This document shows, piece by piece, positions 13,441 through 34,430 of a stretch of 64,000 nt of DNA. Position numbers and translations under genes: made by a program. The DNA is taken from contig OZ219917.1 in NCBI GenBank assembly GCA_964291415.2, forward strand, positions 1,056,001 to 1,120,000. Reading direction: 5' to 3'. Positions within the stretch are counted from its first letter, which is position 1, and each line of letters begins with the position of its first letter. Origin of the DNA: Alphaproteobacteria bacterium. Lineage in GTDB: Bacteria; Pseudomonadota; Alphaproteobacteria; SP197. Below the pieces are notes generated by a model. It had not been told where the DNA came from. It was given only the letters and a program-made list of their open reading frames with translations, and searched no databases.

Positions 13441-13491
13441 GGTTCAGGCCGCCATCTTGGAGCAACCGCGACAAGGGAACACCCGGCAGAG

Positions 13492-17099: not shown

Positions 17100-17127
17100 T
17101 TGACGGGTAGTCGCTGGGGCACACAAT
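17100..17127 (+). promoter_or_regulatory. Putative sigma70 promoter of the RiPP maturase operon
   Basis: TTGACG-N16-CACAAT just upstream of 17146. Confidence 0.45.
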
Positions 17128-17145: not shown

Positions 17146-19518
17146 ATGAGGGCGCCAGTCATGGCAACAATCGGGACCGAACCGGGAGGCGTGGGCGTTG
17201 CCGAGACGAACGTGATTCAACCGACGTTCTGGAATGCTCTTCCCCATTTTCTTCCCATCACCATCTTCCCCCTCATCATCGTGGCGGCGTTGCTGGGAGG
17301 CTGGTGGATCCTTGCCCCCTTCGTTTTCTTCGGGCTCGCCGGCCCGCTCGACCTTGCCTTCGGCATGGACGGGCGGAACATGGATCCGGCGAAGACACCC
17401 GAGCGGCGCCTTTTCTGGCACAATCTCCCGGTCTGGCTGTGGGCCGTTCTGTGGCCTGCAACCTTTGTCTTCACGGCCTGGCAGATTCTTGTTTCCGGCC
17501 ACCTGACCGACTTGGAAGGCGCGTTGATGGTGTTCGTCCTGGCCATGGAGGCCCAGGCGGTCTTCATCGTCGGCCACGAGCTCATCCATCGCCGACGGCA
17601 ATGGGAACGCCGCCTCGGCGAGTTCCTGCTCGCTTCGGCTTCCTATCCGCAGTACGCCACGGAACATGTCTACATTCACCATGCCTTTGTCGGAACACCG
17701 CTGGATGTGGGATCGGCTCCAAGGGGTGAAAGCCTGTGGCACTACTTCCCTCGCGAGGTTGCCAACAACCTTCTCGGTTCGTGGCGTGTGGCGCGCGAGC
17801 GTCTGGCGCGCAAGGGACTGCCGGTCTGGCACCGCAGCAACCCGTTCTGGCGCTATGGCCTGGCGACGGCGTTCTGGTATGCCGTCGTCTTCGCGTTGGG
17901 CGGACCATGGGCGATTCCGGTCTACATGGCGCTCTGTCTCGGCGTTGTCTTCTCGATGAAAGTGTCCAACTACATCCAGCACTATGGGTTGCGGCGCGTG
18001 CGTGTGGCCGGAGGGCGTTTCGAGAAGATCCTGCCCCGGCATTCGTGGAGTGTGGACTACAGGTTCAGCAACTGGATGTTCTTCAACATGCAGCGTCATG
18101 CGGATCATCATGCCGTCTGGGGGCGCCGCTATCCCCTCCTGCAGTTCCGTGGCGCCGACGAGTCGCCGCAGCTGCCCGGGAGCTACGGCAAGATGTTCGG
18201 GCTGGCCGTGCGACCGAAACGCTGGTTCGAGACGATGGATCCGCTGGTCGACGAGTGGCGGGCGCGGTTCTATCCGCACATCGACGACTGGAGTGCCTAC
18301 GACAGCCCGGTGTCCGCCACGCGACCGGAGTCCTTTGACGCAATCGTTGAAATCTACGCCGCGGCGCCGCGGCTTGCCGGCTGGATAGAACGTCAGCCGG
18401 ATCTTCTCGACGAGTTGCGCAGCAAGGAGTTCACCGATCTTGATCTCCCGAAGGGATTCGGCCCCGACGCCGGGGCCGAGACAATCGCCCGGCAGGGCCT
18501 GACACGCCTCTACTGGACCCACGAGTTCGGGGTCGCCGACATGAAGGAGGAAATTGCCGAAACACCGGTTCAGGATGCCGGAGACCTCGTGGAACTCGTC
18601 CGCGGCTGGTCGAACCGCAAGGCCTTCCAGGTCGGCATGCACACGTTGCGGGGCAACCTCACGCCGGTGGAGGCAGGCGGGGCACTGGCCAGCATCGCCG
18701 AAGCGGCGATCGCCGCGATTCTCCAGGCTGTCGTGATCGACACGACCGAGCGCACCGGCGCGCCTTTCGATGGCGGCATCGCCGCGCTGGTTCAGGGCGA
18801 CCTTGCCACCCGGGAGGTGGCGCCGGACACCCCGATGGAGGTCATGTTCGTCCGCGACGGGGATTCCAGGGCCAGTCACGAAACGCTCTGTCGGGAGTTC
18901 CGCGACGCTCTTGGGGAACTCGCGCAGGACAGCCTGCTGTTCGCACCCGCAGGGGCCGGCGACGCGGGGAAGGACGTGTGGTCCCTCGAGGAGTTTGTCG
19001 CGTGCCACAGTGAGCCGGGTGAGGACCTTGCGCGCCTCGCCCGTGCGCGGTGCGTGTTCACCGGCGGCGAAACGGACCTTGGCGAGCGAATCGCGGCAGC
19101 AAGACGGGAGCTTCACGTTCCGAAGGGCGCGGGCACCGATGATCCTGCCGACATCGAAGAGGCGGCGCTCATCCTGCAGCTGACCCTCGCCATGGAGGAA
19201 CCCGCGCCTGCGGCCGGTTCGGTCTTCCGGCGTGCCAGGGAAAAGGGACTGCTTGCGGCCGCGGCCGCCGATGATCTGTGTGAAGCCGCCGCTCTCTGGC
19301 GCAACCTGAATGGAATCCAGCGCCTGGTGATTGAGGGGGGTGTTGTGGACGACGCCGTGCCGGAAAGGGTCAGGGCCGTCATCGCGCGCTCCTGCGGCAT
19401 GGCGGGATACGATGCCCTTGAAGCCGCCATGGCCGACGTGACGTCAAGGGCAGGTCATGCCGTCGCGTCGCTCCCTTCTCTGGCCGATGGCGAAGCGCCC
19501 GCGGACGAGTCCGGCTGA
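17146..19518 (+). CDS. AlkB-like membrane diiron monooxygenase/desaturase fused to a degenerate GlnE adenylyltransferase-like domain
   Basis: His boxes HELIH, EHVYIHH, NYIQHYG, MQRHADHH. The C-half follows GlnE motifs (APRLA..I...PDLLD, GDLATREV..., ARAR, DIE...ILQL). Exact start uncertain (17146/17161). Confidence 0.8.
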   Translation: MRAPVMATIGTEPGGVGVAETNVIQPTFWNALPHFLPITIFPLIIVAALLGGWWILAPFVFFGLAGPLDLAFGMDGRNMDPAKTPERRLFWHNLPVWLWAVLWPATFVFTAWQILVSGHLTDLEGALMVFVLAMEAQAVFIVGHELIHRRRQWERRLGEFLLASASYPQYATEHVYIHHAFVGTPLDVGSAPRGESLWHYFPREVANNLLGSWRVARERLARKGLPVWHRSNPFWRYGLATAFWYAVVFALGGPWAIPVYMALCLGVVFSMKVSNYIQHYGLRRVRVAGGRFEKILPRHSWSVDYRFSNWMFFNMQRHADHHAVWGRRYPLLQFRGADESPQLPGSYGKMFGLAVRPKRWFETMDPLVDEWRARFYPHIDDWSAYDSPVSATRPESFDAIVEIYAAAPRLAGWIERQPDLLDELRSKEFTDLDLPKGFGPDAGAETIARQGLTRLYWTHEFGVADMKEEIAETPVQDAGDLVELVRGWSNRKAFQVGMHTLRGNLTPVEAGGALASIAEAAIAAILQAVVIDTTERTGAPFDGGIAALVQGDLATREVAPDTPMEVMFVRDGDSRASHETLCREFRDALGELAQDSLLFAPAGAGDAGKDVWSLEEFVACHSEPGEDLARLARARCVFTGGETDLGERIAAARRELHVPKGAGTDDPADIEEAALILQLTLAMEEPAPAAGSVFRRAREKGLLAAAAADDLCEAAALWRNLNGIQRLVIEGGVVDDAVPERVRAVIARSCGMAGYDALEAAMADVTSRAGHAVASLPSLADGEAPADESG

Positions 19519-19535
19519 CGCATCCCGCATGTCAC

Positions 19536-20864
19536 ATGGCCCGCGATACTGGATATCCCCTGCAGAGCCCCATCGACGCGACAGACAAGCTCGCGGCGCG
19601 GGCCGGCTCTGACAGGGACTTTCGCCAGCGTCTCCTGGCACATCCCAGGGAGACCATCGAATCGGAACTCGGTGTGACCCTCGACGCAGATCAGGAAATC
19701 CATGTGCACGAAGAGTCGTGCACGGCCACCCACGTGGTGCTGCCACCGCTGGACAGGTACTCCAGGGCTGAGCGCGAGGAAGCGAAGACCGGCGCCGGAT
19801 CGTTGGAGTTCCTCCGCAGGACACTCCATGATCCGGCGCCGCCCGCGCGCGCCGCTGCCCCTGACCCGGCGAGACGCCGCGGAACCACGGCCTCTCCCCG
19901 GGCGCTTGCAGGAGAGGGCCGGCAGAGCATCCGCCGGGGTCTCGCGTTTCTCGAGACGACCATGGACGAACGGGGGGCATGGCACTGCATCCGGTTCAAC
20001 ATCGCCGATCCGGCGATACCGCGGCACTTTGAACGGCCGCCCTTCATCTCGGCGCTGTGCGCACTCGCCCTCGAGGCGTGCACTGAAGAGCGGGCCAGTT
20101 CCATCCGCGCGGCGACCAGGAGATATCTCGTCCACTCCATGGAGTACCCGGGGCTGTGGCGCTACTACCGCCACCTTCCCGCGGATCTGGACAGCACGTC
20201 GCTGTGCTCCCTTGCCCTCTCCGGTCATTCGTGGATCGCTCTGGGCAGGAATGTTCCGCACATGCTGGCGAACCGCGACGCCGATGGCCTTTTCCAGACC
20301 TGGCTGCTGTCGGAAGACGAACCCGATGTCGCGTCGGACTTCCGTATCGAGGCCGACCCCGTTGTCAATGCGAATGTCATCGCCTGCCTTGGCTGTCACC
20401 CCGCGACCAGGGAAGCCCGGCACTGGCTGGAGAACAAGGTCGTCGAAGACCGGCTTGAGAACGCGTCCAAGTGGTATCCCGACACGATCACGGCCTACTA
20501 CGCGATCGGCCGCGCCATGGTCCGGGCCGCCCCGGCCCTTGAGGGACTGCGCCCGGTTCTCGTTGAACGCATCCTGGCGCTCTGCGATGACGAGGGGGGA
20601 TGCGGCAATCTCCTGCAGACCTCCCAGGCCGTCACGGCGCTTCACACCATCGGGGGTCTTGAAGCCATTGACGTGACGCGCCAGGTGGAACGCTTCGTCG
20701 ATGCGCAACGGGACGATGGCAGCTGGCCGGAGTATCTGGCGTTTGGCGATCAGTCGCTGCGGTGGGGTGCGATCGGGCAGATCGGTCACGGTTCCGAGTC
20801 CGTGACTTCCGCGTTCTGCATCGAGGCCCTGGGGCACATGATCAACATCCTCGAGGGACGATGA
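19536..20864 (+). CDS. NHLP leader domain fused to a class II terpene cyclase/prenyltransferase-like (alpha/alpha) barrel
   Basis: N-term A.SD.DFRQRLLAHP..TIE.ELG...IHVHEE....H.VLPP; C-term PADLDSTS, DPVVNAN, QRDDGSW (QW repeat). Confidence 0.75.
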   Translation: MARDTGYPLQSPIDATDKLAARAGSDRDFRQRLLAHPRETIESELGVTLDADQEIHVHEESCTATHVVLPPLDRYSRAEREEAKTGAGSLEFLRRTLHDPAPPARAAAPDPARRRGTTASPRALAGEGRQSIRRGLAFLETTMDERGAWHCIRFNIADPAIPRHFERPPFISALCALALEACTEERASSIRAATRRYLVHSMEYPGLWRYYRHLPADLDSTSLCSLALSGHSWIALGRNVPHMLANRDADGLFQTWLLSEDEPDVASDFRIEADPVVNANVIACLGCHPATREARHWLENKVVEDRLENASKWYPDTITAYYAIGRAMVRAAPALEGLRPVLVERILALCDDEGGCGNLLQTSQAVTALHTIGGLEAIDVTRQVERFVDAQRDDGSWPEYLAFGDQSLRWGAIGQIGHGSESVTSAFCIEALGHMINILEGR

Positions 20865-21024: not shown

Positions 21025-23346
21025 GTGGACGACAGCACCGTGACCGCAGGCACGACCCCACAGGGGATCCTGACCAGGTGGACTCCCGGGGATCGGGGTT
21101 CCGTCAGGACACCCTTGCTCACTCCGCACCTTGAGTTCCGCGCGATTGGTGACGATCGGGCGCTGCTGGTCTCCGAATCCTTCAACACCCTGCTGCATGG
21201 CAGACTGTGCTGCGATCTGATGCCTCTTCTCGACGGACGGCGCGAGGAGGATGGCATCATCGCGGCTCTCGACGGGATCCACGACGCCCGCGACGTTCGT
21301 TCCACCATCTCCTCGCTTTCCGAAAAGGGCTACGTTGTTTCAGGCGAACATGCGATGGACCGGCAGCGGGCGGCCTGGTGGACGTCGCTTGGTGCATCCC
21401 CACGCTGGGTCGAGGAACAGCTGGCGCTCTCGCGGGTTGTGGTCGAGGGAGATGAGGGAGAACTGGCCGCCTGCCTTGCCGTGTGCGGTGCCGTTTCGGG
21501 AGCCGAGGGGAAGGCCAGTCTCAGGATTGTTGTCTGCAACGATTATCTGGAACCGCGCCTCGAGGAGGTGAACCGGAGACAGCGCGAGGCGGACGAGCCG
21601 TGGATGCTTGCGCGGCCCCATGGCGTGCAGGCGCTCTTCGGTCCCGTCTTCCGGCGCCAGGGGCCCTGCTGGGAATGTCTGGCCAGCCGCATGCGCAGCC
21701 ACCAGGAAGTCCACGCGTTCCTTCGCAATGTGGCCGGAGAGGACGCCGCCTTCAGACCATTTGCCTCGGAAGGCGTGGTGCGGGACGGATTGTTGAGGCT
21801 GATTGCCGCAGAGATCGTCAAGTGGCTGGTCCTTGGCGAGACGGCTGCCGTCCATGATGAAGTGATCGCCGTCGATACCGGCGACTTTGCTGTTTCACGG
21901 CATCGGGTCATGCGCCGGCCGCAGTGCCGCGCCTGTGGAGACGATGGGTTGCACAGATCCGACCGTGCGCCGGTACCGGTGTGCCTGAACGCAAGTCCAA
22001 AGGCTGTTCGGACCAGTGGCGGTGCACGCTGCGTGGCGCCGGAAGCGACCCTGGCGACCTACCGGCACCTGGTCAGTCCGGTCAGTGGTGTCGTGACCTG
22101 GCTGTCGCGTACCACCGATGAAAGCGACCCGTGGCTTCATGTCGACTGGGCCGGAAGCAACCTGGGCATGAGGAGCCGCAGCCTGGCCTCCCTCAGGCGC
22201 AGTCTTCGCAGCAAGAGCGCCGGCAAGGGGAGCACGCCGGTGCAATCCAGGGTCTCTGCCCTTTGCGAGGCGATCGAGCGCCATAGCGGAACCCGGTCAG
22301 GTGACGAGATCCGCATTCGCAGGACATTCAACGGGTTCGACGGGAACGAAAGCGCGATTCACCCCAACGACGTGCAGTTGTTCAGCGACAACCAGCTCGA
22401 CAACGCAAAAGACATCAACGAGAAGGGTCACCCCTACAACATCGTGCCGGCCCGCTTCGACCCTGACGCGGCGGTCGACTGGACTCCGGTGTGGTCGCTG
22501 ACCCAGCGGCGACATCGCTATCTGCCGACGTCGATGCTTTACAGCATGGCGGCCGAGGAGCGTGGTCCGGCGGACCTGATCGCCGATTCCAACGGTTGCG
22601 CTGCCGGCAACACCCTGGAAGAGGCCATCCTGCAAGGCTTCTATGAACTCGTCGAACGCGATGCCTTCGCCATCTGGTGGTACAACCGGCTCAACATGCC
22701 GGCGGTCGATCCCTGCGCCTTCGATGACCCGTACCTTCTCGATGCAACGGCCGTCTACGCCCGCCACGGGAGGGAAGTGTGGATGCTCGACATCACGTCC
22801 GATTTCGGTATCCCAACCTTCGTGGCACTCTCTCGCAGAGTCGACGCCGCCAGCGAGGACATCATCTACGGCGCCGGGACCCATGCCGTTCCGCGACTGG
22901 CCGCCCTGCGGGCGGTGTGCGAACTGAACCAGTGTCTGACGTGGCTGCCGCGGCCCGGAAGCCGCGACGGCCGGCCGACGATCGATGACCCGTTTGTGCT
23001 GTCATGGTGGAGAACCGCGCGCCTTGCCGGATGCCCGTGGCTGGCGCCGGCAACCGAGGGGACGGCTGGCAGGGCGTCGCAGCCTTCCATCGCAGACTCG
23101 GCGGATACGCGCGACGATGTGGAAAGCTGCCGCGCGCTTGTGGAAGCCAGGGGCATGGAGTTCCTGGTGCTTGACCAGACCCGCCCCGACATCGGAATGC
23201 CGGTTGTCCGTGTCATCGTGCCGGGGATGCGCCACTTCTGGGAACGCTTTGCCCCGGGCCGTCTCTACGAGGTGCCTGTCAGCCTGGGATACCGGGCGCA
23301 TCCGCCTGGTGAATCCGACCTCAACACCGCGCCTGTCATTGCCTGA
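21025..23346 (+). CDS. srpC: Fused TOMM cyclodehydratase (RRE + E1/ocin-ThiF + YcaO)
   Basis: GP.F....PCWECL, RPQCRACG, SAGKG, SALCEAIER, SNGCAAGNTLEEA, ELVERDA, RVIVPG. The gene symbol is assigned by analogy to the srp clusters. Confidence 0.9.
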   Translation: MDDSTVTAGTTPQGILTRWTPGDRGSVRTPLLTPHLEFRAIGDDRALLVSESFNTLLHGRLCCDLMPLLDGRREEDGIIAALDGIHDARDVRSTISSLSEKGYVVSGEHAMDRQRAAWWTSLGASPRWVEEQLALSRVVVEGDEGELAACLAVCGAVSGAEGKASLRIVVCNDYLEPRLEEVNRRQREADEPWMLARPHGVQALFGPVFRRQGPCWECLASRMRSHQEVHAFLRNVAGEDAAFRPFASEGVVRDGLLRLIAAEIVKWLVLGETAAVHDEVIAVDTGDFAVSRHRVMRRPQCRACGDDGLHRSDRAPVPVCLNASPKAVRTSGGARCVAPEATLATYRHLVSPVSGVVTWLSRTTDESDPWLHVDWAGSNLGMRSRSLASLRRSLRSKSAGKGSTPVQSRVSALCEAIERHSGTRSGDEIRIRRTFNGFDGNESAIHPNDVQLFSDNQLDNAKDINEKGHPYNIVPARFDPDAAVDWTPVWSLTQRRHRYLPTSMLYSMAAEERGPADLIADSNGCAAGNTLEEAILQGFYELVERDAFAIWWYNRLNMPAVDPCAFDDPYLLDATAVYARHGREVWMLDITSDFGIPTFVALSRRVDAASEDIIYGAGTHAVPRLAALRAVCELNQCLTWLPRPGSRDGRPTIDDPFVLSWWRTARLAGCPWLAPATEGTAGRASQPSIADSADTRDDVESCRALVEARGMEFLVLDQTRPDIGMPVVRVIVPGMRHFWERFAPGRLYEVPVSLGYRAHPPGESDLNTAPVIA

Positions 23347-23355
23347 GGGAGTGTC

Positions 23356-24534
23356 ATGGACACAGACAAGGCCATCGCACTGACCCAGGACCTTCTGGCC
23401 CAGGAGGGCGGGACCATGGGCGACCTGCTCGGTCACTTCCGGAACAGGGTGTCGCCGACCCTCATCGATGACGCTGAATGGGATCGTGTCCTGGCATGCG
23501 CCCGAACCCTTCCCATCACGATGGGCGCGCTTCCCTTCGGTTTTGAACTGCCGCTGCATGTGCCGGAGCCACAGGCGGATCTAGGCGTATCCATGGCGAG
23601 TGGAACCAGATCGGCGGAGTTCTTCCGGGAGCGCGCCCGGGTTCACAGGACCGATGATACCCTCGGCACACTCATGCGACTCTTCGATCACATGGAAGGC
23701 GGGGTCTCACCCTTGCGCGACATTGTCGGCCGCAAGGTGATGCTGGAGTACGACATCGGCTCGGCTGAAGGCGGTACGCCTTCGCGTCCGGCCTTGTTCC
23801 TGAGGCCCGGTGAACGACCGATCGTCGGCGCGGGCGGCCAGGTCGATGATGTCCTGCTGGTGGGCGATGCCCTTGTTTCGAGTCACGGCTGGACGATGGG
23901 TGCAGGCCAGCGCAAGGCACTCTCGCAGGCCTACCTGGCGCAGCCGGAGGATACGCGCATGGACTCGTTCGGGATGTTCCCGTCCCGCTCACGCGCCGTC
24001 CGGCTGGCCATCATGGGGTTCGCAAACCGCCGGCAGATCGAAACCTACCTGGACAAGGCGGGGTGGCCAGGCGAAGCCGCGGCCGTCGATGCGGTCATGG
24101 CACGTTTCATGGAACGCGTGAACATCGTCAGGACCGGGGTGAACATTGACGTGACGGAAGAGGGGCTGGGCCCCGCCCTCGGTCTGACGCCGATCGTCCG
24201 GCAGAGGTACACCAAGGATTCACGGTACTGGCTCGATGGCCTGACCGACTGGGCGCCGTTCCTGGACGCCCTGAGTCACGAGGACATTGTCGTGCCCGGC
24301 AAGCTGGAAGCGCTGGCAGGCTGGGTCTCGAAACCGGAACACCTGTTCGCACGGTCCGGACGCTACGTGCTGCTGCGAGGCATCCACCATGTCAAGCTGG
24401 TCATTTCGGCGAACCGGCTCTGCAAGGCCAAGGCCTATGTCTTCATGGTGCTTGTCGGGCGCCGTGTCACTCTGACGCCGAACACAACGGCCCCCGATCC
24501 GGATCGAACCGGGGCAATCCTCGCAGGTTCTTGA
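23356..24534 (+). CDS. Conserved RiPP-associated protein, probable ABBA-like aromatic prenyltransferase
   Basis: FGFE.PL...ADLG, LEYD, SR...VRL, W..FLD.L, RGIHHVKL, KAYV; translationally close to YcaO (9-nt gap). The function is inferred. Confidence 0.45.
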   Translation: MDTDKAIALTQDLLAQEGGTMGDLLGHFRNRVSPTLIDDAEWDRVLACARTLPITMGALPFGFELPLHVPEPQADLGVSMASGTRSAEFFRERARVHRTDDTLGTLMRLFDHMEGGVSPLRDIVGRKVMLEYDIGSAEGGTPSRPALFLRPGERPIVGAGGQVDDVLLVGDALVSSHGWTMGAGQRKALSQAYLAQPEDTRMDSFGMFPSRSRAVRLAIMGFANRRQIETYLDKAGWPGEAAAVDAVMARFMERVNIVRTGVNIDVTEEGLGPALGLTPIVRQRYTKDSRYWLDGLTDWAPFLDALSHEDIVVPGKLEALAGWVSKPEHLFARSGRYVLLRGIHHVKLVISANRLCKAKAYVFMVLVGRRVTLTPNTTAPDPDRTGAILAGS

Positions 24535-24570: not shown

Positions 24571-24822
24571 TTACCAGCAGCAGCACAGACCGGCCGAGAC
24601 CGCTTCGAGCTGCTCTTCGGTAATGTTCGGGTCGGGCGGCAGTGCAACATGCACCGTCTGCATGTCACTCTGATGAACCACGACGTTCATCGAGTCTGGA
24701 ATCGTGATTCCAAGTTCGTTGCAGATGGTCCCTTTCGGATCTGCAAGAAGCTCTTGCCTGAAACCGGCGTCGACAGCGGATTTGTCGACAATCTGCTGCA
24801 ACATCTCATTGCCGTTTCTCAT
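24571..24822 (-). CDS. srpE: Proteusin (NHLP) precursor peptide, 83 aa, core LCCCW after the AG cleavage motif
   Basis: MRNGNEMLQQIVDKSAVDAGFRQELLADPK...HVALPP...EEQLEAVSAG|LCCCW; GGAGAG RBS upstream of the ATG at 24822. Confidence 0.93.
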   Translation of the reverse strand: MRNGNEMLQQIVDKSAVDAGFRQELLADPKGTICNELGITIPDSMNVVVHQSDMQTVHVALPPDPNITEEQLEAVSAGLCCCW

Positions 24823-24884: not shown

Positions 24885-24912
24885 AGTGTACAGGCCGGAT
24901 TTGCCGGGTCAA
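24885..24912 (-). promoter_or_regulatory. Putative dedicated sigma70 promoter of the precursor gene
   Basis: Minus strand TTGACC-N16-TACACT; the -35 overlaps the MMPL stop codon. Confidence 0.5.
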
Positions 24913-27215
24913 GCATTTCCGTTCGTGTTGTTGCCGCGGTCAACCATCCGCAACAGTGCGGGCAGGAGCGTCAGGTCGGCAAGGAGTGCAAAGGCGATGA
25001 TCAACGCCGTCAGGATCCCCACCTGTGCGGTGGGAATGAAGGGAGAGAAGGCGAAGATCAAGAAGCCGGCCACCAGGACGAGAGTCGTCGTGAAGACGGC
25101 GCGGCCGGCAGTGTCGAAGGCGTAGCGCACGGACTCCCCGCTGTCCTTGCCATGGTCGAGGCGCGCTTTGCGGTACTTGCTGAGAAAGTGCACCGTATCG
25201 TCGACAACGATACCGACCGTCATGGCCACGACGACCGACAGGGAGAGTCCCACCTGCCCCACCGTCAATCCCCAGACGCCGAAACCCAGCACGGCCGGGA
25301 GCAGGTTGGGAATGATGCTGATCAGGCCCAGTCGCAAGGATCTGAGGGCGAAGAGGAGTATGGCGGAAATCGCGAGCAGCACGACCATGGTTCCGACCAG
25401 CATGGCCCGGATATTGCGTTGACCGATCCAGGCGAACAGCACCGCCGGTCCGGTGCTGTTGACGCCGGCCACGTTGGGTGCGTTGTCGCTCAGCCAGGCC
25501 CTGGCCCGTGCGTTCAGTTCAAGCAGTTCCTGAGAGCCGAGAGACTGGGCCTGGACCGATACGCGTGTTGCCGACTTTGACCAGTCGATCTGGTTGTTCA
25601 CGTCCAGGCCCTGAGGCAGGGAGAGCTCGTAGAGCAGCAGGTACTGTGCGGCCAGCTCCCGGCTTTCGGGGAGGCGGTAGGCATCAGGGTCGTCACCATG
25701 CATGGTCTGGTTGAGACGCCGGAAGGTATCGGTGATGACGGCGACGTGGCGCACTCGCGGCTGGTCGCGGTACCAGTCGGCGAACGCGGCGACATCGGTG
25801 AGGAACGCCGGGTCCGTGACGCCGCCTTCGGCGGGAGCTTCCAGCGAATACTCGAGCAGGGTGTTGCCGCTCAGCCGCTCGTCCATGAAGTCCGTGTCCT
25901 GGCGGAACTCGACACTCTCGTCGAAGAAGTGGACCAGGACATCGTTGAGCTCGTTTCGCGGGATCGCGAGGATCATCGCAATGACGAGCACCAGCCATCC
26001 AAGGATGATCAGCTTTCCGTGCTTGATCACAACGTCGGCCAGGTGGTGCATTGTCGGCGCCTGCGGCCGCCTGTTCCTTGGCGCGCGAACGGGGAGCAGC
26101 GACAGCATGGCCGGAAGAAAGGTCACGGACAGGATGAAGGACGTGACGATTCCGATGGCGACAAAGCAGCCGAGTTCACGATAGGGGGGCACCTCGGAAA
26201 AGTTCATGCCCAGGAATCCAAGGGCGGTCGTGAGGCTCGCAAGGAAGATCGGGTGCAGGTTGAGCCTGATGGCTTCGACGATGGCATCGTGTTTCGAATC
26301 GCCCGCGCGCAGACGTTGCTGCAGGGCAACCAGCAGGTGAACGCAGTTGGCCACGACAATCATGAGGATGATGGTTGGCGCCGGGGCGATGGGCGGAGAA
26401 AACTCCAGGCCGATCCAGGCCCCCAGGCCCATGGAGGCCAGTATGGAAAAGATGATGACAAGGCCGGTGGTCACCACGCCCGGCCAGCCCCGGACGAGAA
26501 TGCCGAGAATCAAGGCCATGAGAAGGAGGCTGGCCGGCAGGAAGATCATCTGGCTTTCAACCGAAGCCTCGAGAAAGGTCTGGTTGACCATCACCGTACC
26601 GACGATGCGAAGATCAACGCCGGGGAAACGCGTCTCTGCCTCGGCGGCTATCGTTCGGGCGAATTGCGCCACTTCGGCCACGGCTTCCAGCTGGTCGCCT
26701 TCAGGCATTTCCAGAGTGACATTGACAACGCTGACATCGCCATTGCGGGCCAGCATGCTGCCGGCGATGCGGGGGTCGAGGAGGGCAATGTCACGGATGC
26801 GTGACCGTGCTTCAACCCGCGTCAGTTCCTGCGGATCGACCAGGTCCTGAACCACCAGGTCATCGCCGTCGGCCGTCGTGTACTGGAAGTTGGCCAGGGA
26901 GTCGACGCGCCGTGACCAGGGTGTCTGCCAGGCAGCCTCGGTCAGCCAGACGGCGGCAGAGAGCGCCTCGGTGGAGGTCGCATCGCCGTCGTCGGGAACA
27001 ATCAGGAAGACGACATTCTCGTTCTTTCCATAGGTGTCTTCCAGGTCTTCCAGCGCCAGAAGCTGCGGATTGTCGTCATCAAAGAAAATGCGGTAGTCGG
27101 CGGAGAATTCCAGCAGGAGCATGCCGACGGAGGCAAGAGCGACCAGGATGGGCGCAACGAGGATGACCAGCCAGCGGTTGGCGAGCACCCGTTCCGCATA
27201 ACGTTCAGCCGTCAT
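24909..27215 (-). CDS. MMPL/RND family transporter
   Basis: Two repeats of TM-periplasmic-5TM; VHL, SLTTALGF, GIVVDDTVHF motifs; ATG at 27215 with GGAGAG. Confidence 0.9.
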   Translation of the reverse strand: MTAERYAERVLANRWLVILVAPILVALASVGMLLLEFSADYRIFFDDDNPQLLALEDLEDTYGKNENVVFLIVPDDGDATSTEALSAAVWLTEAAWQTPWSRRVDSLANFQYTTADGDDLVVQDLVDPQELTRVEARSRIRDIALLDPRIAGSMLARNGDVSVVNVTLEMPEGDQLEAVAEVAQFARTIAAEAETRFPGVDLRIVGTVMVNQTFLEASVESQMIFLPASLLLMALILGILVRGWPGVVTTGLVIIFSILASMGLGAWIGLEFSPPIAPAPTIILMIVVANCVHLLVALQQRLRAGDSKHDAIVEAIRLNLHPIFLASLTTALGFLGMNFSEVPPYRELGCFVAIGIVTSFILSVTFLPAMLSLLPVRAPRNRRPQAPTMHHLADVVIKHGKLIILGWLVLVIAMILAIPRNELNDVLVHFFDESVEFRQDTDFMDERLSGNTLLEYSLEAPAEGGVTDPAFLTDVAAFADWYRDQPRVRHVAVITDTFRRLNQTMHGDDPDAYRLPESRELAAQYLLLYELSLPQGLDVNNQIDWSKSATRVSVQAQSLGSQELLELNARARAWLSDNAPNVAGVNSTGPAVLFAWIGQRNIRAMLVGTMVVLLAISAILLFALRSLRLGLISIIPNLLPAVLGFGVWGLTVGQVGLSLSVVVAMTVGIVVDDTVHFLSKYRKARLDHGKDSGESVRYAFDTAGRAVFTTTLVLVAGFLIFAFSPFIPTAQVGILTALIIAFALLADLTLLPALLRMVDRGNNTNGNA

Positions 27216-27385
27216 GTGCCATCTCTCCACGGCTGTCCCTCACCACCGTGTCGGACACGACCACACTCGACGCTCGCGGACGGATCGTCGAAAGCAGGGA
27301 ATCATGGGGAAGGGCGCTCATTGCGGCAGGTCGCAAAACAAGGTTGGGCCGGCCCGAATGCCATGTCAACGGTCCGCTTCACGGG

Positions 27386-30306
27386 TCAGGCGATCTGGCG
27401 TCTGACCAGATTCCGGAAGACGCCATCGATGTCCATGAGTTCGCTGAAGGAGCCGCTCTCCACAATCTTCCCGGCTTTCAGCACATGGATGCAGTCAGCC
27501 TTCTCCAGCGTCGACAACCGGTGCGCGATGACAAGTCTCGTTGTGGTCAGAAGGGCGAGGTTCTGCATGACCTCGGCCTGGCTGTCGTTGTCGAGCCAGT
27601 TGGTTGCCTCGTCGAGGAGCATGATTCGCCGGTCGCCGATGAGGGAGCGGGCAATGGTGACACGCTGGCTCTCTCCGCCGGAGAGAACCGAACCGCTGCC
27701 CCCGACCATCGTCATCATTCCCATGGGCATGGCCTTGATTCCGCTTTCTATTCCGGCCGCCCGGGCAGCCTCCCAGACCTCTGCAGGCCCCACTCCCTCG
27801 TGGTGCGCGACAATGTTGTCCCAGATGTCCTGGGGGTGCAGCCGCACCGCCTGGGGTACGGTGCCTATCTTGCGGCGCACCTGCTTGAGATTGAGGTGCT
27901 TGAGGTCCCGTCCGTCGTAGTAGACGGCCCCGGACGTCGGCTGGTCGATACCAAGCGCCAACTGGAAGAGCGTGCTCTTTCCGGCACCGGATTCACCGGC
28001 AATCGCGACGAATTCGCCGGGACGGACATGGATTGTGACATCATCGAGAACCAGGGGCCCTTCGGGTTCGTATCGGAATGACACATGGTCGAACAGGATC
28101 TCGCCGCCGAGACGCTCGACCAGCGCACCCTCTTCCCCGGCTTCGGGAACCGCGGCAAGCAAGGGGCGCATCTGCCTGAATGCCGGCACCAGGGCAGCCA
28201 CGGCGCCGACCGATTCACCAAGACGGGCCACAGCCGATTGAGACGCGATGAACACCATGAAGACGACGAGGAAATCGCCGACCGGAAGCGTCCGCGTTTC
28301 GAATGCCGCCACCGCAAACAGCAGCACCGCTCCGGCGAAGAACGGAAGAGCGGCGCCAAAGGCACGGACGTGCTCCTCGATACGGTGGACTTCGAGCTCC
28401 GCGCGCTTTTGCTGGCGATAGTCCCCGGCCCATATGGCGAAAGCCGATCCTTCCGCACTTTCCACACGCAGCTTGGCGATGCCGCCGATGATCTGGAACA
28501 GCCGTCCGGTCACGCGTCTGGCCGCGCTGATCATTCGTCCCTGGGGTACGAGCTGGCGCAGCCCCAGCACGACGGTCACGAGAAGCGAGAGGAGGCTGAA
28601 AGCGAGAACGACAAGACCCAGAGAGGTATCGTAGAAGAAGGTGATCCCGAGAACCGGAACGAGAAACAGGATTGACAGCAGGCTGTCGGACACGACTCCC
28701 TGCAAGCCGTCACGAACATTCTGGAATGTCATGCCCGACATCGCCAGGTCACCGGTTGGCTGGCGACGCAGGACAGCGGGCGGAAGGCGCATGAGGCGGT
28801 CCCAGAAGGCTGCTTCGACCCGCGATGCCGAACGTCCTTCCAGGCGCATCAGAATCGTGCTTTGCAACAGCTGAAGCAAAGCGCCCAGAAGACCGAATCC
28901 CGCCAGTGTCACAGCCACGACATAGAGGATGCCGACGGTTCCGCCGGCCGTGGCCTGGTGAGCCACAAAACCAAGCGCCAGCACCGGCAACAGCTTGATC
29001 AGGCCGCCGAAGAACCCGGTTGCCAAGAGCCGGGCAAGATCGGCGCCCGACCCCTTGAAGGCGATGTCCAGGAGATCGGCCGGCTTGACGGACCTTGACG
29101 GCAATGGCCGATAGAACATCCAGGCTTCAGCCTTCAGCCGCCGGCGCGCTCGCCTGCGATCCGGACGCTGCGTCCGCTCGCCGGGTCGACCTCACGATAG
29201 TGCCCGAACAATCCCGGCAGCAGGACGACAGGCCTGTCGTCGTCGGACCGGAATGCCAGAATTGCGCTGCTGTCTCCACGCCACCATGCATTGTCCGGGG
29301 AGATCCTGAGGCGGCGGGCACGGACGCCGGACGCATCGAGAATGTCCGTGAGAGCGGGCGCGGAACCGGAGGCGTGGCGTGGCGGGATCCTGAAATCGAT
29401 TCCCTGGTGGCGGCCGATGATCTTCAGTGCGTCCGCAAGTGCCGTGTCGCCGATGTCCTCGCCGATCGGCATGTCGTACATGTTGAACAGCTTCTGGCGC
29501 GCGTCGCGCTCGGCCGTGCGCCGGCTGGCGATCCGCGCGCGTTCCAGGTTTGCCTCATCGACCACCGCCAGTTGCCGGTTGAGCCGCTCAAGCGCGAGAG
29601 CGGCAGCATGAAACGTGGCCAGTGCCGGCAACAGGGTGCCCTGTTCGGCCAGTGACCGGCTCGATGTGCCGGACACGGTGACCCCTGCATGGAAGGTGAG
29701 CCAGCTTGTCCGGGTCAGCGGCACCAGGGTTTCGCCGCGACCGCCTTCCTCCGGTTCGATCATGTCCATGTAGAGACCGGCGCCGTGCGAGGGAATGGAT
29801 ACCCACACAACGCCCTGGCGTACGGAAAGAATGCAGGACTCCAGGGACCGGGTCACACCGGGTTCGGCGAGGGCAGTGGCGTATGGAATGCTGCCGACGA
29901 ATCGCGACAGGGTTTCGGTGATGGCCTGCAACCACGTGTCCGTCTGTTGCGCCAGTTCAGCCGGATCGACTTCGTGGAGCAGGGACACCGGCAGACGCAT
30001 CAGAAGGGTGTCCGGCAGTCCCTTCGCCAGCAGGCCAAGTGTCGTCTCCTTGCCGTCGCCTTCAGAATCCGGCGCGACACCGGGCAACAGTTCACCTGCC
30101 TCGCGGCGAAGCAGGTGTTGTGGTGACGCCTGCTCCACTCCGTCCCTGAATTCCACCAGGAAGAGATCGACGCTGCCCCTGGCAATGAACCACACGTGAT
30201 CGGGTTCATCGAGCGGCACCGGCAGGTTACCGGCGCAGGGACAGGGCTTGCCGGCGCGTTGCGCGAGTTCGGCAATCGATGTGTATGGAGGCGACTGATC
30301 GCGCAT
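27386..30306 (-). pseudogene. NHLP bacteriocin export ABC transporter permease/ATPase, split by a -1 frameshift near 29140 (pieces 29134..30306 and 27386..29119)
   Basis: Upstream piece has the cNMP-like/inactive C39 region ending ERAGG*. The -1 frame continues RLKAEAWMFYRPLP into the TMD and ABC domain (GESGAGKS, LSGGE, LLDEAT). Could be a sequencing error. Confidence 0.8.
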
Positions 30307-32516
30307 CAGCCTGACCTGGTCAGTCGCGAGTAGACGCCATCGGCATTGGCGATCAGTTCGTCGTGGGTGCCCCGCTCCACTTCACGGCCCCCGTCGAGCA
30401 CGATGATCTCGTCGCAGTCACGCACCGCGCTCAACCGGTGCGCCACGATCAGGCACGTGACGCCACGCCGACGCAAGGCATCGTCGACATACTCTTCCGT
30501 TGCCGCGTCAAGGGCGCTGGTTGCCTCGTCGAGCACGAGCACGGTCGGATGACCCACCAGGGCACGGGCAATCTCCAACCGCTGGCGCTGGCCGCCGCTG
30601 AAGTTCATGCCGCCCTCCTCGACAAGGGTGGCGTACCCGAGAGGGCGTTTCAGAATGTCCTCATGGATGCAGGCGTCCCTTGTCGCATCGACGATGACCT
30701 CATCCGGAACGGCCGGGTTCCACAGGGTGATGTTGTCGCGCAAGGTTGCGGAAAAGAGCACGGTTTCCTGGTTCACCATGGAAATGGACCGCCGCAGCAC
30801 CTCCTCGGGAATCTCCTGGCGAGGGTGGCCGTCAAACAGGATCTCACCCGACCAGGGTTGATAGAGTCCCGCAACCAGATGCGCCAGGGTCGACTTGCCG
30901 GAACCGCTGGCTCCCACCAGAGCGACCCGCTGCCCGGGATTCAGGATGAGGTTGAAGTCAGAAATCAGGGGTGGCCGGCTCCTGTTGAAACCGAAGGTGA
31001 CGTTTCTCAGTTCGACCTTTCCTGCAAGCTGGAGGCGCCTGTTGAACGTCGTGATGGAAACCCGGTCCGGTTCCCGGCGGCTGAACACGGGATCCTCCGT
31101 GGCCCTGGCAACGTCTTCCAGCCTCTGCAAGTCGGTTTCGAGAGCCTGCCGCCTGTCGGCGAACTCCAGGAATCGCCCGACAGGCGCGAGAAACATCTCC
31201 GCCAGGATGTAGAAGGCGACCAGTGTCCCCAGGGTCATGGAGCCGGTCATGACCATGGTGCCGCCGATCAACAGGATTGTCGCGCTGCGCAGAGCGGCGA
31301 TCAGGTCCGGCAGGGCGCCATTGAGCGCACCCAGTTCGAAGTGGGCCTGGCGCGCACGAAGTTCGCGGGCCTGATGACCGCCCCAGCGTGCAAAGAACCG
31401 GTCGTCGGACCCGGTCATGCGCAGGTTGTCGGCATGGTTGAGCATCTGCATGCCGATGCCGAGCAGAAGTCCCTGTTCGCGCCGCATGGCCTGGCTGCGC
31501 ACGGCGCGCCGGATATTGAAGACGTGGGCGAGTCCCGCATGGATGAGAGCCAGCGACAGCACGACCAGTGCCAGCACGGGATCGTAGGCGAGCAACACCG
31601 CGAACAGCACGGCGCTCGTGGCCATGTCGATGATGAGCACCAGAAACTGCTCTGTCAGGGTTTTCGCCACCCGGTCGAAGGATGACACCCGGTCCGTCAG
31701 GTCGCCGGCAAGCCGGTGTTCGAAGAACTCGACGGGCAGGCGCAGCAGCTTCGTCAGTCCACGGCTGTAGCCGGTTACCGATATGCGGATGGCGAGCCGC
31801 TTGAGAAACCTGTGCTTGAGCAGGGTCAGCAGGTAGACGAGCACACCGCCGCCGATGAGCGCGGCCACAAGGCCAATCCAGGTTCCCTGGTTCAACAGGA
31901 CATGGTCGACGAAGGCGCCAAGGACTGCCGGCACAACCAGCGACAGCAGTGTCAGCATGAGCGCGCAGGCCGCCACTCCGGCAAGCGAACTCCACAGTCC
32001 GCTGACGACGGCGCCGAGTTGTGCGTAAAGGCTCTTGCGTGTGCCGCCGGGAACAAACTCATCGCCACGCGCAAACCGCAGGGCGACACCGCTGTAGCCG
32101 GCGGCAAACTCTTCGGCGGTTACCCGGCGGCGCCCCGTAGCCGGATCATTGAGGTAGTAGCCGTGTTCGTCGAAACCTTCGAGAACAACGAAGTGGCTGA
32201 ACTGCCAGAACAGAATCAGGGGTAGCTGCAGTTTCCTGAGCTGTTCGGCCCTGAGGCTCAGTCCGCTGCATTCAAGACCGTACTGTCGCGAGGCTCTCAG
32301 AATGCTGGCGGCGCTGCTGCCGTCCCGGCTCACCTCGCACTTTTCCCTGAGTTCGGTCAGCGGAACCCATCGCCCGAAGTGGCCGAGGACGCTGCCGAGG
32401 CAGGCAGCACCGCACTCGGACGCGTGCATCTGCAAGACGACCGGAGTGGCGACTCTTCGTCGCCGGACCTCGGATGCCGTCCGGCTTCCAGCCTCCCGGG
32501 AGGCGCGTACCGGCAT
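30306..32516 (-). CDS. NHLP bacteriocin ABC transporter, C39 peptidase/permease/ATPase
   Basis: QMHASECGAACL, HFVVLEG, LNDPA, GASGSGKS, FSGGQRQR, LDEATSALD. Confidence 0.93.
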   Translation of the reverse strand: MPVRASREAGSRTASEVRRRRVATPVVLQMHASECGAACLGSVLGHFGRWVPLTELREKCEVSRDGSSAASILRASRQYGLECSGLSLRAEQLRKLQLPLILFWQFSHFVVLEGFDEHGYYLNDPATGRRRVTAEEFAAGYSGVALRFARGDEFVPGGTRKSLYAQLGAVVSGLWSSLAGVAACALMLTLLSLVVPAVLGAFVDHVLLNQGTWIGLVAALIGGGVLVYLLTLLKHRFLKRLAIRISVTGYSRGLTKLLRLPVEFFEHRLAGDLTDRVSSFDRVAKTLTEQFLVLIIDMATSAVLFAVLLAYDPVLALVVLSLALIHAGLAHVFNIRRAVRSQAMRREQGLLLGIGMQMLNHADNLRMTGSDDRFFARWGGHQARELRARQAHFELGALNGALPDLIAALRSATILLIGGTMVMTGSMTLGTLVAFYILAEMFLAPVGRFLEFADRRQALETDLQRLEDVARATEDPVFSRREPDRVSITTFNRRLQLAGKVELRNVTFGFNRSRPPLISDFNLILNPGQRVALVGASGSGKSTLAHLVAGLYQPWSGEILFDGHPRQEIPEEVLRRSISMVNQETVLFSATLRDNITLWNPAVPDEVIVDATRDACIHEDILKRPLGYATLVEEGGMNFSGGQRQRLEIARALVGHPTVLVLDEATSALDAATEEYVDDALRRRGVTCLIVAHRLSAVRDCDEIIVLDGGREVERGTHDELIANADGVYSRLTRSG

Positions 32517-32517
32517 C

Positions 32518-33060
32518 TCAGGATGGCCTCATGCCCAACAGGGAGAACGGGGACTGCCTGGCGAGTTCGATGACGATCCGGCACCTGATGCCGGCGGGGA
32601 TGGGCGTTTCGAGAGTCCGATCGATCGCGACGTCAACAAGGTACATGGAAACCGGCACCGCGAGACCCTGGACGGGGAAGACGGCGGAAACCGACACAAT
32701 CTCCCCCTTGAGCGCAGGAGCGCTGCCGTCGGCCATGGTCAGTTCGACCGTTGCCGGCAGGCCGGGCCCGACAGTTGCCGTGTTGTCGTGTCCCGCCCAG
32801 ACGAACAATTGCAGACTGTCACCGCTGGCGGGCTCGGCCACGATCCCGTCCACTGCCCGACTGTGTGAGATGCTGCCAAGAAAGAGCCATGCGGCAAGGA
32901 GCGCCACGACGAGGGCGATGATGCCGACAACGAGCCGTTCCCGCGGCGTGGAAACGGTCAGCAACTGGTCGAGCTGCTCACGTTCTTCCTTCGCTTCGGC
33001 AACGGTGTTGTGAAAGGAATCAAATGGATTGTTGAACACGGCGGGGCACAACCTCCCCAT
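32518..33060 (-). CDS. Short NHLP bacteriocin secretion (HlyD-like) accessory protein
   Basis: EQLDQLLTVSTPRE + TM helix, C-terminal SPFSLL; lacks the long coiled-coil. The start may be GTG at 33039. Confidence 0.7.
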   Translation of the reverse strand: MGRLCPAVFNNPFDSFHNTVAEAKEEREQLDQLLTVSTPRERLVVGIIALVVALLAAWLFLGSISHSRAVDGIVAEPASGDSLQLFVWAGHDNTATVGPGLPATVELTMADGSAPALKGEIVSVSAVFPVQGLAVPVSMYLVDVAIDRTLETPIPAGIRCRIVIELARQSPFSLLGMRPS

Positions 33061-33158: not shown

Positions 33159-34430
33159 TTAGACGATGCCGAGACCCTGGGACACCTGGGCGTAACTGGT
33201 AAGGGGGACAGCGCACATCCGGTGCCAGTCCTCCCTGGCGATGACCGGCTGGTTCAGCAGGCCGATCATGTCGTCGAACTTGCTGAGTGCGGAGCATCCG
33301 ACAACCTCCGGGGCGGCGGCCTTGCGGTGTTGAGGCCAGGCATGACCGCGGGCGTATCGCCAGAAAGGCGTGTCATGCCGTGAGCCGCAGGAATAGTGCC
33401 AGCCGACAAAGAGTCCGTATCGCAGGACGGTGCTGACAAGGAAGCGATTGACCACCGGAGCATCGCGCTCGAGATACTCCGGTGCGCGACCGAGACGGAT
33501 GTGGAGCACCATGCCGATCTGCAATTGTGCGGAGACGATCGCCGTTGCCTCGAGGGGTTCCATGAAGGCCGCCGCGTTGCCGATGCGGGCGACAGCCCCG
33601 TCATAGATCCGGCGATGAACAAAGTTCGGGAAGGGGATGACGGCGCGCGGTTCGAACTCCGTGACGCCGTCGGCTTCCAGGAGAACGTCAAAGTCCGCAT
33701 TGACCTCGTCGACGCTGGAGAGGTTGCGATTGAAGATGTATCCGTAGGACGTGTGGACCGTCAGCGGAATCACGAATACCCAGCCGTGCGGACGGGCCAC
33801 CGCACGGGTGTAGGTCGGTTGCCGGACCGTTTCCCCGGGCCTTTCGCGAATGGTGGCCGGTGCGCGACGGATGATCGCCGTATTGGTCGGAATGAAGGGG
33901 ATTTCGATGTGCTGGTCTGCGTCCAGTTCTCCTGGAAATCCGCGGGCATCGAAGACGAGGTCGTAGCGTTCCGGTCCCATGCCCTCGAAGTTCACCTGCG
34001 CACCGCCGTCGACCCTGGTGATCCCGAGCACCCTGGCGTCGACATGACGCGCCTTTGTGCCTTCCTGCAGCAGGTCCGCCATCACATCGGCAGACAAGTG
34101 ATAGGCATAGGACACCTGTTGCGGGGTGAAGTAGTGGGTGAAGTCTCGTTGAAGCCGGCCCCATCCCTCGAAGGCGACGCCGTACTTGCGGGTTCCATTC
34201 AGGCGCTGCTGGACGGTTTCGTGCGGCAGGTTCGTCAGTTTCCGCAACTCGTCGACCAGGCTGGGCCAGCTTCCTTCGCCCACGCCGCTGATCGGGATGC
34301 CGGGGTCATGGATGTGATGCAGTTCGTGGTCGATGCCCTGCAGCTGGTTCGTCACACTGGCGGCTGCCAGGGATCCAGCGGTTCCCCGTCCAATCACCGC
34401 GATCCTGTTGAGGGTCGTGCTGCCAATCAT
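33159..34430 (-). CDS. srpI: Flavin-dependent (tryptophan-halogenase family) peptide halogenase
   Basis: IGRGTAG, GVGEGS, TRKYGV (catalytic Lys position), GWVFVIP, IGNAAAFMEPLEAT; located at the edge of a cluster whose core ends in Trp. Alternative start at 34469. The gene symbol is assigned by analogy to the srp clusters. Confidence 0.85.
   Translation of the reverse strand: MIGSTTLNRIAVIGRGTAGSLAAASVTNQLQGIDHELHHIHDPGIPISGVGEGSWPSLVDELRKLTNLPHETVQQRLNGTRKYGVAFEGWGRLQRDFTHYFTPQQVSYAYHLSADVMADLLQEGTKARHVDARVLGITRVDGGAQVNFEGMGPERYDLVFDARGFPGELDADQHIEIPFIPTNTAIIRRAPATIRERPGETVRQPTYTRAVARPHGWVFVIPLTVHTSYGYIFNRNLSSVDEVNADFDVLLEADGVTEFEPRAVIPFPNFVHRRIYDGAVARIGNAAAFMEPLEATAIVSAQLQIGMVLHIRLGRAPEYLERDAPVVNRFLVSTVLRYGLFVGWHYSCGSRHDTPFWRYARGHAWPQHRKAAAPEVVGCSALSKFDDMIGLLNQPVIAREDWHRMCAVPLTSYAQVSQGLGIV

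Follow-up and report, generated by a model that had tools for sequence, protein, structure and literature searches.

A candidate membrane oxygenase of the srp cluster joins an AlkB-type diiron domain to a degenerate GlnE module

The subject of this report is a gene in a 64,000-nucleotide stretch of contig OZ219917.1 of an Alphaproteobacteria bacterium (GenBank assembly GCA_964291415.2, positions 1,056,001 to 1,120,000 of the forward strand; the whole stretch is hereafter called the window). Its product is a fusion of an AlkB-like diiron enzyme and a degenerate C-terminal half of GlnE, as had been proposed in a first-pass annotation of the bare sequence and as is now borne out by profile, BLASTP, motif, and fold matches. 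The gene (17146..19518, + strand) is an open reading frame (ORF) of 790 codons starting with ATG, and lies in a full gene cluster for a ribosomally synthesized and posttranslationally modified peptide (RiPP), with an SrpE precursor, a YcaO protein, a halogenase, and NHLP-type exporters. The founding paper on such srp (sponge-derived RiPP proteusin) clusters is reportedly that of Nguyen et al, published in J Am Chem Soc in 2021. We put the probability at roughly one half that the gene is the conserved membrane oxygenase gene of the srp cluster, its product being an oxidase that acts on the lipid-like (prenyl) part of the srp peptide and carries a pseudo-enzyme as docking or regulatory domain.

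Results

The N-terminal part of the fusion is a complete AlkB-type integral-membrane diiron domain (residues 24-389; 17215..18312, + strand, like all parts of the gene given below) with all nine His ligands. Pfam FA_desaturase (PF00487) matched residues 129-351 with an E value of 1.2e-26, and a family profile of 58 fusion relatives, the alignment of which also underlies the residue counts below, retrieved the AlkB structures 8F6T (E 7e-61) and 8SBB (E 5e-50) from the PDB over profile positions 48-368. In the AlphaFold2 model of the full fusion (pLDDT 83, pTM 0.80), residues 24-389 superimposed on 8F6T with a Z score of 33.5 and a root-mean-square deviation of 3.2 over 353 aligned residues; against 8SBB, Z was 31.9, and Foldseek returned the AlkB fold, a six-helix membrane domain with a cytoplasmic cap, with E 1.4e-14. 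Compared with AlkB (Fontimonas thermophila, 8SBB; AlkB-AlkG, 8F6T), on which the fusion superimposes over 353-358 residues and to which it is 26-29% identical in sequence, the likeness extends to the four His motifs, the nine ligands, and the C-terminal helices as far as the MDPLVD motif. The four His boxes that had been read from the sequence are present, beginning at residues 144, 173, 275, and 316: HELIHR (17575..17592; residues 144-149), EHVYIHH (17662..17682; residues 173-179), NYIQHYG (17968..17988; residues 275-281), and QRHADHH (18091..18111; residues 316-322). They align to those of both structures, and H144, H148, H174, H178, H179, H279, H318, H321, and H322 are invariant in 58/58 relatives. 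Hydrophobic segments were found around residues 37-65, 107-138, and 248-265; apart from an amphipathic helix near residue 520, they are confined to the first 270 residues.

What sets the diiron domain apart from AlkB is Q278 in NYIQHYG, which takes the position of a conserved AlkB Glu (E281 of the F. thermophila enzyme, FtAlkB, when counted along the 8SBB alignment). The replacement of the usual NYxEHYG, already pointed out in the first-pass annotation, is real, and Gln is invariant in all 58 relatives; three distant fusions (P0145, P0168, and P0177) retain Glu in the HYG motif. In the part of PMC10110569 available, E281 of FtAlkB is described as a conserved carboxylate near Fe1, proposed to tune reactivity. 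The invariant exchange of Glu for Gln next to Fe1 suggests that reactivity may be tuned away from ordinary alkane hydroxylation.

The C-terminal module (residues 379-782; 18280..19491) descends from the adenylyltransferase half of GlnE and is complete, consisting of a helical lead-in, a nucleotidyltransferase (NTase) core, and a helical tail. Pfam GlnE (PF03710) scored 25.7 bits against a cutoff of 24, so that both profiles suggested earlier as a check, FA_desaturase and GlnE, match the protein. The NCBIfam GlnE equivalogs matched with E 2e-16, far below their cutoffs (58.9 versus 724 bits for NF010706), and the family profile matched the Escherichia coli GlnE adenylylation domain (3K7D) with E 2.6e-17 over 288 profile positions. 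The host possesses a GlnE of its own, 1000 aa long with two PF03710 stretches, which is encoded on another contig (L082:238-3240); a housekeeping GlnE identity of the fusion was rejected because of this separate protein. Residues 407-742 of the fusion aligned with residues 578-966 of the host GlnE at 32% identity (BLASTP, E 2e-37, about 340 residues). At the level of fold, model residues 379-778 matched 1V4A (Z 29.2), residues 384-782 matched chain B of 3K7D at 524-946 (Z 26.6), and the GlnE-like AMPylase DrrA was matched with Z 18.1. The agreement of profile, host-GlnE, and fold matches indicates that the C-terminal 400 residues form a whole GlnE-type module, which substantiates the earlier reading of about 400 aa tracking the C-terminal half of GlnE. 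In contrast to GlnE, in which two modules are arranged in tandem (about 950-1000 aa), the fusion has a single module, and this is attached to a membrane enzyme.

A further difference from GlnE is the loss of catalytic carboxylates and of DxRLRP, by which the module is judged to be catalytically dead and would transfer no nucleotide. The NTase motif of the host GlnE, GKLGSREMTVSSDLDLLFLYD, reads GDLATREVAPDTPMEVMFVRD in the fusion, where the degenerate motif GDLATREVAPDTPMEV occupies residues 551-566 (18796..18843). The catalytic motifs G-x-G-[GS], DxD, and DxRLRP are lost (GDLATRE...TPMEV): VDMRLRPSG of the host GlnE has no counterpart in the fusion, DxRLRP is absent from all 58 relatives, and about 60 residues are deleted from the NTase core compared with GlnE. 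At the position of the first Asp, the relatives have A, P, E, T, or S, and D in 0/58. At the second acidic position, D is found in 36 of them, E in 15, and other residues in 7; this fusion has E. The earlier statement that the DxD is lost is thus correct for the first Asp but not for the second acid, which survives here as E and as D or E in 51/58. The more distant full-length fusions form a gradient: some keep an acid-x-acid (SDVEL in P0145, SEVEL in P0152), and none contains DxRLRP. The losses of the NTase acid-x-acid and of the AlkB Glu were perhaps stepwise, the former having been kept in P0145 and P0152 and the latter in P0145, P0168, and P0177.

A module that is still an NTase and uses noncanonical residues to AMPylate the peptide or a partner would be consistent with the full GlnE/DrrA-type fold, with the one motif Ser and the one acidic residue that survive in the fusion, and with the acid-x-acid of the distant fusions. 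In 58/58 relatives, the first Asp is missing and the third carboxylate and the RLRP element are deleted, and no part of the protein evolves faster than the NTase core; residual AMPylation is considered extremely improbable.

Both halves of the protein, the dead module included, are under purifying selection, and the module is not decaying. Among 14 closely related pairs, the ratio of nonsynonymous to synonymous substitutions (dN/dS) ranged between 0.04 and 0.14 for the AlkB domain, between 0.03 and 0.28 for residues 373-510, and between 0.14 and 0.49 for residues 511-780 (NTase core and tail). Mean column identity was 0.78-0.88 at residues 361-510, which equals that of the catalytic AlkB domain and includes the junction and lead-in (residues 373-510; 18262..18675), and 0.49-0.73 in the NTase core, the least conserved part of the fusion. 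Conservation that is best in the lead-in rather than in the catalytic core, maintained purifying selection, and descent from the regulated adenylyltransferase half of GlnE would all suit a sensor, which binds glutamine, PII, or a nucleotide and switches the oxygenase according to the nitrogen or energy state. A sensor is nevertheless rather improbable: the fusion has lost the phosphate-binding DxRLRP element, the conserved neighborhood includes no gene for PII or nitrogen regulation, and nothing found favors nitrogen sensing specifically. A glutamine-synthetase-family gene (1332-2636, + strand; Gln-synt_C, E 1.5e-95) is located 14.5 kb upstream of the fusion gene; it is not shared with other loci, although the comparison of neighborhoods, spanning only 5-32 kb of the window plus 8-kb flanks, is a weak test for this gene.

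The two halves are always one polypeptide. A word-indexed protein search gave 836 homologs at E<=1e-3, the best 120 of which were 732-903 aa long, with identities of 55-100% across 74-99% of the query; PF00487 is annotated in all of these and PF03710 in most. An exhaustive search with the C-domain alone gave 336 cluster representatives at E<=1e-3, ~15 of which are full-length fusions, reaching down to 26-36% identity in the C-domain; true GlnE (~1000 aa) appeared only from E 1e-44 and matched no more than the query's first 200 residues. Matches of 390-566 aa, candidates for a split form or a stand-alone C-domain, were rejected as gene fragments, as they begin inside the AlkB C-terminus and therefore provide no evidence of a split form. 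An assembly chimera, which would have spoken against the fusion, was rejected as well, because there are hundreds of full-length relatives and because a contig from an independent assembly (sponge-metagenome run X2, contig record 17) spans 17553-19233, including the junction, with about 95% identity.

The cluster surrounding the fusion gene is the published srp cluster itself, not a mere look-alike. Common to both are an 83-aa NHLP precursor with LCCCW and ITEEQL, a YcaO protein, a Trp halogenase, and NHLP-type ABC exporters. An LCCCW core, an ITEEQL motif, and a 252-bp precursor gene are given as marks of srp in the available parts of 10.1101/2023.06.09.544420, PMC10286304, and PMC10858898, and the 252 bp stated in the first of these, a preprint, is also the length in the window. 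The SrpE-type precursor in the window (83 aa; 24571..24822, - strand) ends with ...ITEEQLEAVSAGLCCCW, contains the LCCCW core and the ITEEQL motif, and scored 60.2 bits with TIGR03793 (cutoff 50.9). The precursor is far more conserved than the enzymes (85% mean column identity across phyla versus 53-57% identity of the fusion); 51 of the 54 distinct precursors end with LCCCW, the variants being LCCCGV (L023), LSCCM (L055), and LSCCA (L069).

Linkage of the fusion to this cluster was assessed by a genome_contigs search, in which 351 stretches encoded a relative; of these, the top 80 (52-92% identity) were retained together with flanks of 8 kb, and cluster markers were scored by tblastn with the proteins of the window. 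srp genes were found within 8 kb in 79/80 genome loci, the sole exception (L075) ending just after the fusion gene. Homologs of YcaO were present in 79 of the 80 loci, of the precursor in 67, of a 392-aa protein in 65, of a protein combining an NHLP-leader-like domain with an alpha/alpha-toroid (NHLP-toroid; >100 bits) in 62, of the ABC exporters in 59-60, of the halogenase in 36, and of the MMPL transporter in 34; at least three core srp markers were found in 71/80. ORF clustering gave lower figures (at least one marker in 77/80, at least three in 63/80), because some genes had been called on the wrong strand. In a metagenome scan, 31/35 fusion loci contained at least one srp marker and 26/35 contained YcaO; the four without any marker are contigs of 3.8-10 kb. 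By comparison, srp markers were found at 0/45 metagenome loci of plain AlkB, that is, AlkB without the C-domain; 22 of these loci have a length of 9 kb or more. The supposition that the architecture is confined to srp-type clusters agrees with these figures. According to record titles, the metagenome-assembled host genomes of the 80 loci belong to Alpha- and Gammaproteobacteria, Acidobacteriota, Nitrospinota, and Candidatus Poriferihabitaceae; runs labeled as sponge metagenome (X2 and X3) hold related contigs. The fusion is thus a fixed component of a peptide cluster that occurs across several phyla of sponge-associated bacteria. The groups named in the titles interleave in a FastTree phylogeny of 68 fusions, which is descriptive and involved no test of transfer.

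The usual order of genes is a HlyD-like gene, two ABC exporter genes, the NHLP-toroid gene, the fusion gene, the YcaO gene, and the 392-aa gene, with the precursor gene on the other strand. The NHLP-toroid gene and the YcaO gene each flank the fusion gene directly in 40/70 loci. In the clade of the window, the fusion gene precedes the NHLP-toroid gene, whereas most other loci have the order toroid, fusion, YcaO. The gap of 17 nt noted earlier between the fusion gene and the NHLP-toroid gene (there termed NHLP-cyclase) is correct: position 19518 is the last of the fusion stop codon, and the following ATG begins at 19536. On the + strand, the NHLP-toroid gene (19536..20864) is followed by that of the YcaO/TOMM cyclodehydratase with a leader-binding domain (SrpC-type; 21025..23346) and that of the 392-aa protein (23356..24534). 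On the - strand, beside the precursor gene, are those for an MMPL/HAE3 RND transporter with a sterol-sensing-type domain (HpnN-like; 24909..27230), NHLP-type ABC exporter subunit 2 (TIGR03797; 27386..30306), a C39-peptidase ABC exporter (TIGR03796, 852 bits; 30306..32516), a small HlyD-like secretion protein (weak TIGR03794 match; 32518..33060), and a flavin-dependent Trp halogenase (SrpI-type; 33159..34658). The TIGR03797 exporter is one ORF of ~980 aa in about 40 related loci; in the window it consists of two ORFs in different frames, of 390 aa (29134-30306) and 577 aa (27386-29119), the cause being a frameshift, an error in sequencing, or a genuine split.

Rubredoxin (PF00301), the customary partner of AlkB, was not found anywhere in the 4.44-Mb genome (stated to be 100% complete). 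It is also missing from four of the five other fusion-bearing genomes, and thus from 5/6 in all; the remaining genome encodes it twice, in both cases at a distance of about 1 Mb or more from the locus. Among the Pfam-scanned ORFs of the window, a set that includes part of the small ORFs, no ferredoxin family was found except for the Rieske domain at 54521-55696. Within this scope, the earlier observation that neither rubredoxin nor ferredoxin is encoded in the window holds. Unlike AlkB, the fusion is thus encoded in a genome without rubredoxin and in a RiPP cluster instead of an alkane-degradation context, and a GlnE-type module of 400 aa stands in the place of rubredoxin. The available part of a review on AlkB partners (PMC8918992) lists only fusions to rubredoxin (C-terminal) and to ferredoxin-reductase/ferredoxin (N-terminal), and contains 0 occurrences of GlnE or adenylyl. 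What the present fusion has in common with these is an extra domain on an AlkB hydroxylase; unlike in the known cases, this domain is a pseudo-NTase devoid of a redox cofactor motif.

The module might substitute for rubredoxin by docking a ferredoxin, flavodoxin, or reductase on the cytoplasmic face of the diiron domain. It is attached at the same C-terminal point as rubredoxin in natural AlkB-rubredoxin fusions, of which 8F6T is one (PMC8918992, in the part available), rubredoxin is missing from most of the fusion-bearing genomes, and conservation of the junction equals that of the catalytic domain. Against such a role, residues 373-790 contain five Cys, only one of which is nearly invariant, and neither a Cys cluster nor another cofactor motif, and no candidate gene for an electron donor is conserved in the cluster. 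Electron coupling as the function of the module is considered unlikely.

A lipid-like component of the product is suggested by several neighbors of the fusion gene. For the 392-aa protein, Pfam returned 0 families even at E 10, NCBIfam returned 0, and a PDB profile search gave chance matches only (E 0.74). Its model (pLDDT 87.2, pTM 0.86) has five alpha-alpha-beta-beta repeats and matched 69 PDB entries at E<=1e-3 with TM scores of about 0.4-0.57. Every one of those listed is an ABBA prenyltransferase that modifies either aromatic substrates or peptides, among them DMATS1, 6-DMATS, IptA, EpzP, CloQ, PatF, PagF, and LimF. A language-model atlas pointed in the same direction, and across 40 homologs numerous Arg, Lys, and Tyr positions do not vary. 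The protein is predicted to fold as an ABBA (PT-barrel) prenyltransferase. The NHLP-toroid protein shows clear nitrile-hydratase-alpha/NHLP matches at its N-terminus, and its profile weakly matches squalene-hopene cyclase (E 0.0036) and the geranylgeranyl-transferase beta subunit (E 0.035), that is, terpene-cyclase/prenyltransferase-beta-like proteins. Together with the envelope-type genes of the cluster (HpnN-like MMPL, LolA-like, and DUF1302-like), the prenyltransferase fold and the toroid suggest a product with an isoprenoid, lipid-like part. Of the original guess of a RiPP/terpene-tailoring oxidase, it is the terpene side that has gained from the prenyltransferase-fold neighbor and, weakly, from the toroid.

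Residues 18-86 of the NHLP-toroid protein are 33% identical to residues 10-78 of SrpE (E 1e-12). In place of ...EAVSAG|LCCCW of SrpE, the toroid protein has ...EEAKTGAGSLEF. From its sequence, the protein looks like a complete leader with a folded cargo of 355 aa; it may be a substrate of the C39-ABC exporter, for export or cleavage, or may mimic a leader.

The same envelope genes, and the fact that AlkB-type enzymes use membrane-delivered lipids (PMC10110569, in the part available), would also fit an enzyme that bypasses the peptide and remodels the membrane or hopanoid-like lipids of the producer, for self-protection or at an export or anchoring site. However, the fusion gene is situated inside the biosynthetic core, between NHLP-toroid and YcaO in 40/70 loci, and apart from the envelope genes, which vary more (MMPL in 34/80 loci), which makes remodeling of producer lipids very unlikely.

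As to the gene itself, a start at ATG 17161 is likelier than the one that opens the ORF: it is preceded by GAGGG 8 nt upstream and would yield 785 aa, which is the length of the database copy of the protein. A promoter-like site upstream of the gene (TTGACG-16-CACAAT; 17100..17127, + strand) is a consensus match only. Such a site also precedes the precursor gene (24912-24885), and the two sites found in the region, compared with 0.9 ± 0.9 expected, are not above chance. Both halves of the gene are covered by contigs of a sponge metatranscriptome library (X19), which match 17187-17552, 18279-18579, and 18984-19197 with 92-95% identity and originate from a close relative; they are a weak sign of expression, as DNA carry-over is possible. 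The X19 bins at 19403-19936 had no cover, which carries no evidential weight.

Elsewhere in the window, an ORF for an MBL-fold/rhodanese protein (14710-16242, - strand) overlaps a mandelate-racemase/enolase-family gene (15949-17055, + strand) by about 290 nt, and the start of one of them has probably been called too far upstream. Two tandem S-Me-THD-like (DUF917-type) paralogs (12170-14550, + strand) adjoin an amidohydrolase, a block common to the closest relatives of the window upstream of the cluster. Farther downstream, three large Old-Yellow-Enzyme/pyridine-nucleotide-disulfide oxidoreductase fusions (50279-52399, 56394-58793, and 58800-60761, + strand) are encoded, with a Rieske ring-hydroxylating oxygenase (54521-55696) among them.

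Discussion

We propose that, in the inner membrane, the AlkB domain of the fusion would use O2 and an electron donor other than rubredoxin to oxidize some hydrophobic portion of the product as it matures. The likeliest target would be an isoprenoid chain on the peptide, at one of its methyl or methylene groups; the chain would be contributed by the neighboring ABBA prenyltransferase-like protein, and the peptide thus modified would be the thiazoline- and bromotryptophan-containing one derived from ...LCCCW. The dead GlnE module would act as a cytoplasmic docking or regulatory platform at the site where AlkB normally meets its redox partner; what it binds there might be a partner enzyme, the electron donor, or the substrate itself. 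The lipid substrates of AlkB-type enzymes reach them from the membrane (PMC10110569, in the part available), and with a substrate coming from the membrane, the fusion would fit as the oxidase of the isoprenoid part.

Several points weigh against this proposal. The srp chemistry described so far, thiazoline formation by SrpC and bromination by SrpI, requires neither an oxygenase nor a prenyl group, as far as the available parts of PMC10286304 and PMC10858898 go, and the substrate, reaction, and donor of the fusion are deduced from its neighbors. Among these, the prenyltransferase is assigned by a predicted fold with a TM score of about 0.5 and no sequence-level match, and the terpene likeness of the toroid protein is below family cutoffs. 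Linkage to srp covers the main family and not the distant fusions (26-36% identity in the C-domain): a metagenome scan with the alignment of distant fusions (P0145, P0152, P0168, P0177, P0179, and P0214) returned main-family fusions and plain AlkBs only. As the distant fusions keep an acid-x-acid, residual catalysis is possible in part of the family, and as the NTase core is the least conserved part of the protein, the role of the module may be merely structural. A complex prediction of the full fusion with the SrpE precursor, for which there were no controls, scored 0.00 and speaks neither for nor against binding.

The diiron domain could also act as a desaturase that converts the thiazolines made by SrpC to thiazoles, replacing the usual azoline dehydrogenase, which depends on flavin mononucleotide. 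AlkB is within the desaturase superfamily (PF00487), and no nitroreductase or SagB-type dehydrogenase was found among the scanned genes of the cluster. The Glu near Fe1 is replaced, and the desaturase SCD1 has water at that place (PMC10110569, in the part available); furthermore, the products are termed "azol(in)e-containing" in the part of the preprint 10.1101/2023.06.09.544420 available. Yet the leader-bound peptide is soluble, unlike the membrane-delivered substrates toward which the channel of AlkB opens, and the genes for the prenyltransferase fold, the toroid, and lipid export would be left unexplained. To our knowledge, no enzyme of the FA_desaturase family acts on a peptide heterocycle, which counts further against thiazole formation, and we regard it as quite improbable.

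The fusion combines known kinds of protein, a member of the AlkB family and a GlnE-derived pseudo-enzyme, within an already published cluster. Only SrpE, SrpC, and SrpI, three of roughly ten conserved srp genes, have been characterized in the portions of the srp literature consulted, and srp clusters are said to hold several genes of unknown function (PMC11832590, in the part available). In the portions available, excluding the labeling used in the founding paper itself, the literature on srp and proteusin clusters describes no desaturase, AlkB, or GlnE-like gene. Nor was an AlkB-GlnE fusion found described in the literature on desaturases with RiPP or YcaO and on GlnE with AlkB. Taken to its full extent, our proposal would make the mature srp product a prenylated, possibly cyclized, oxidized lipopeptide and not a bare brominated tris-thiazoline pentapeptide; the fusion would be the first AlkB-type oxygenase to mature a RiPP, its dead GlnE module would dock in the stead of rubredoxin, and the exchange of Glu for Gln would mark a new reactivity class of AlkB. 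This extended version is put forward tentatively, as it appears on balance doubtful.

The srp cluster is reported to be among the most widespread and most highly transcribed ones in sponge microbiomes, and its ecological role is described as elusive (10.1101/2023.06.09.544420, in the part available). If the peptide is a substrate of the fusion and of the prenyltransferase-fold and toroid proteins, heterologous expression has so far yielded a compound other than the true natural product, and the predicted mass shifts could be searched for in sponge extracts. The fusion would be an enzyme of the AlkB family with an altered environment of Fe1, no rubredoxin, and a pseudo-enzyme domain, and could serve as a natural experiment in the coupling and tuning of such membrane diiron enzymes.

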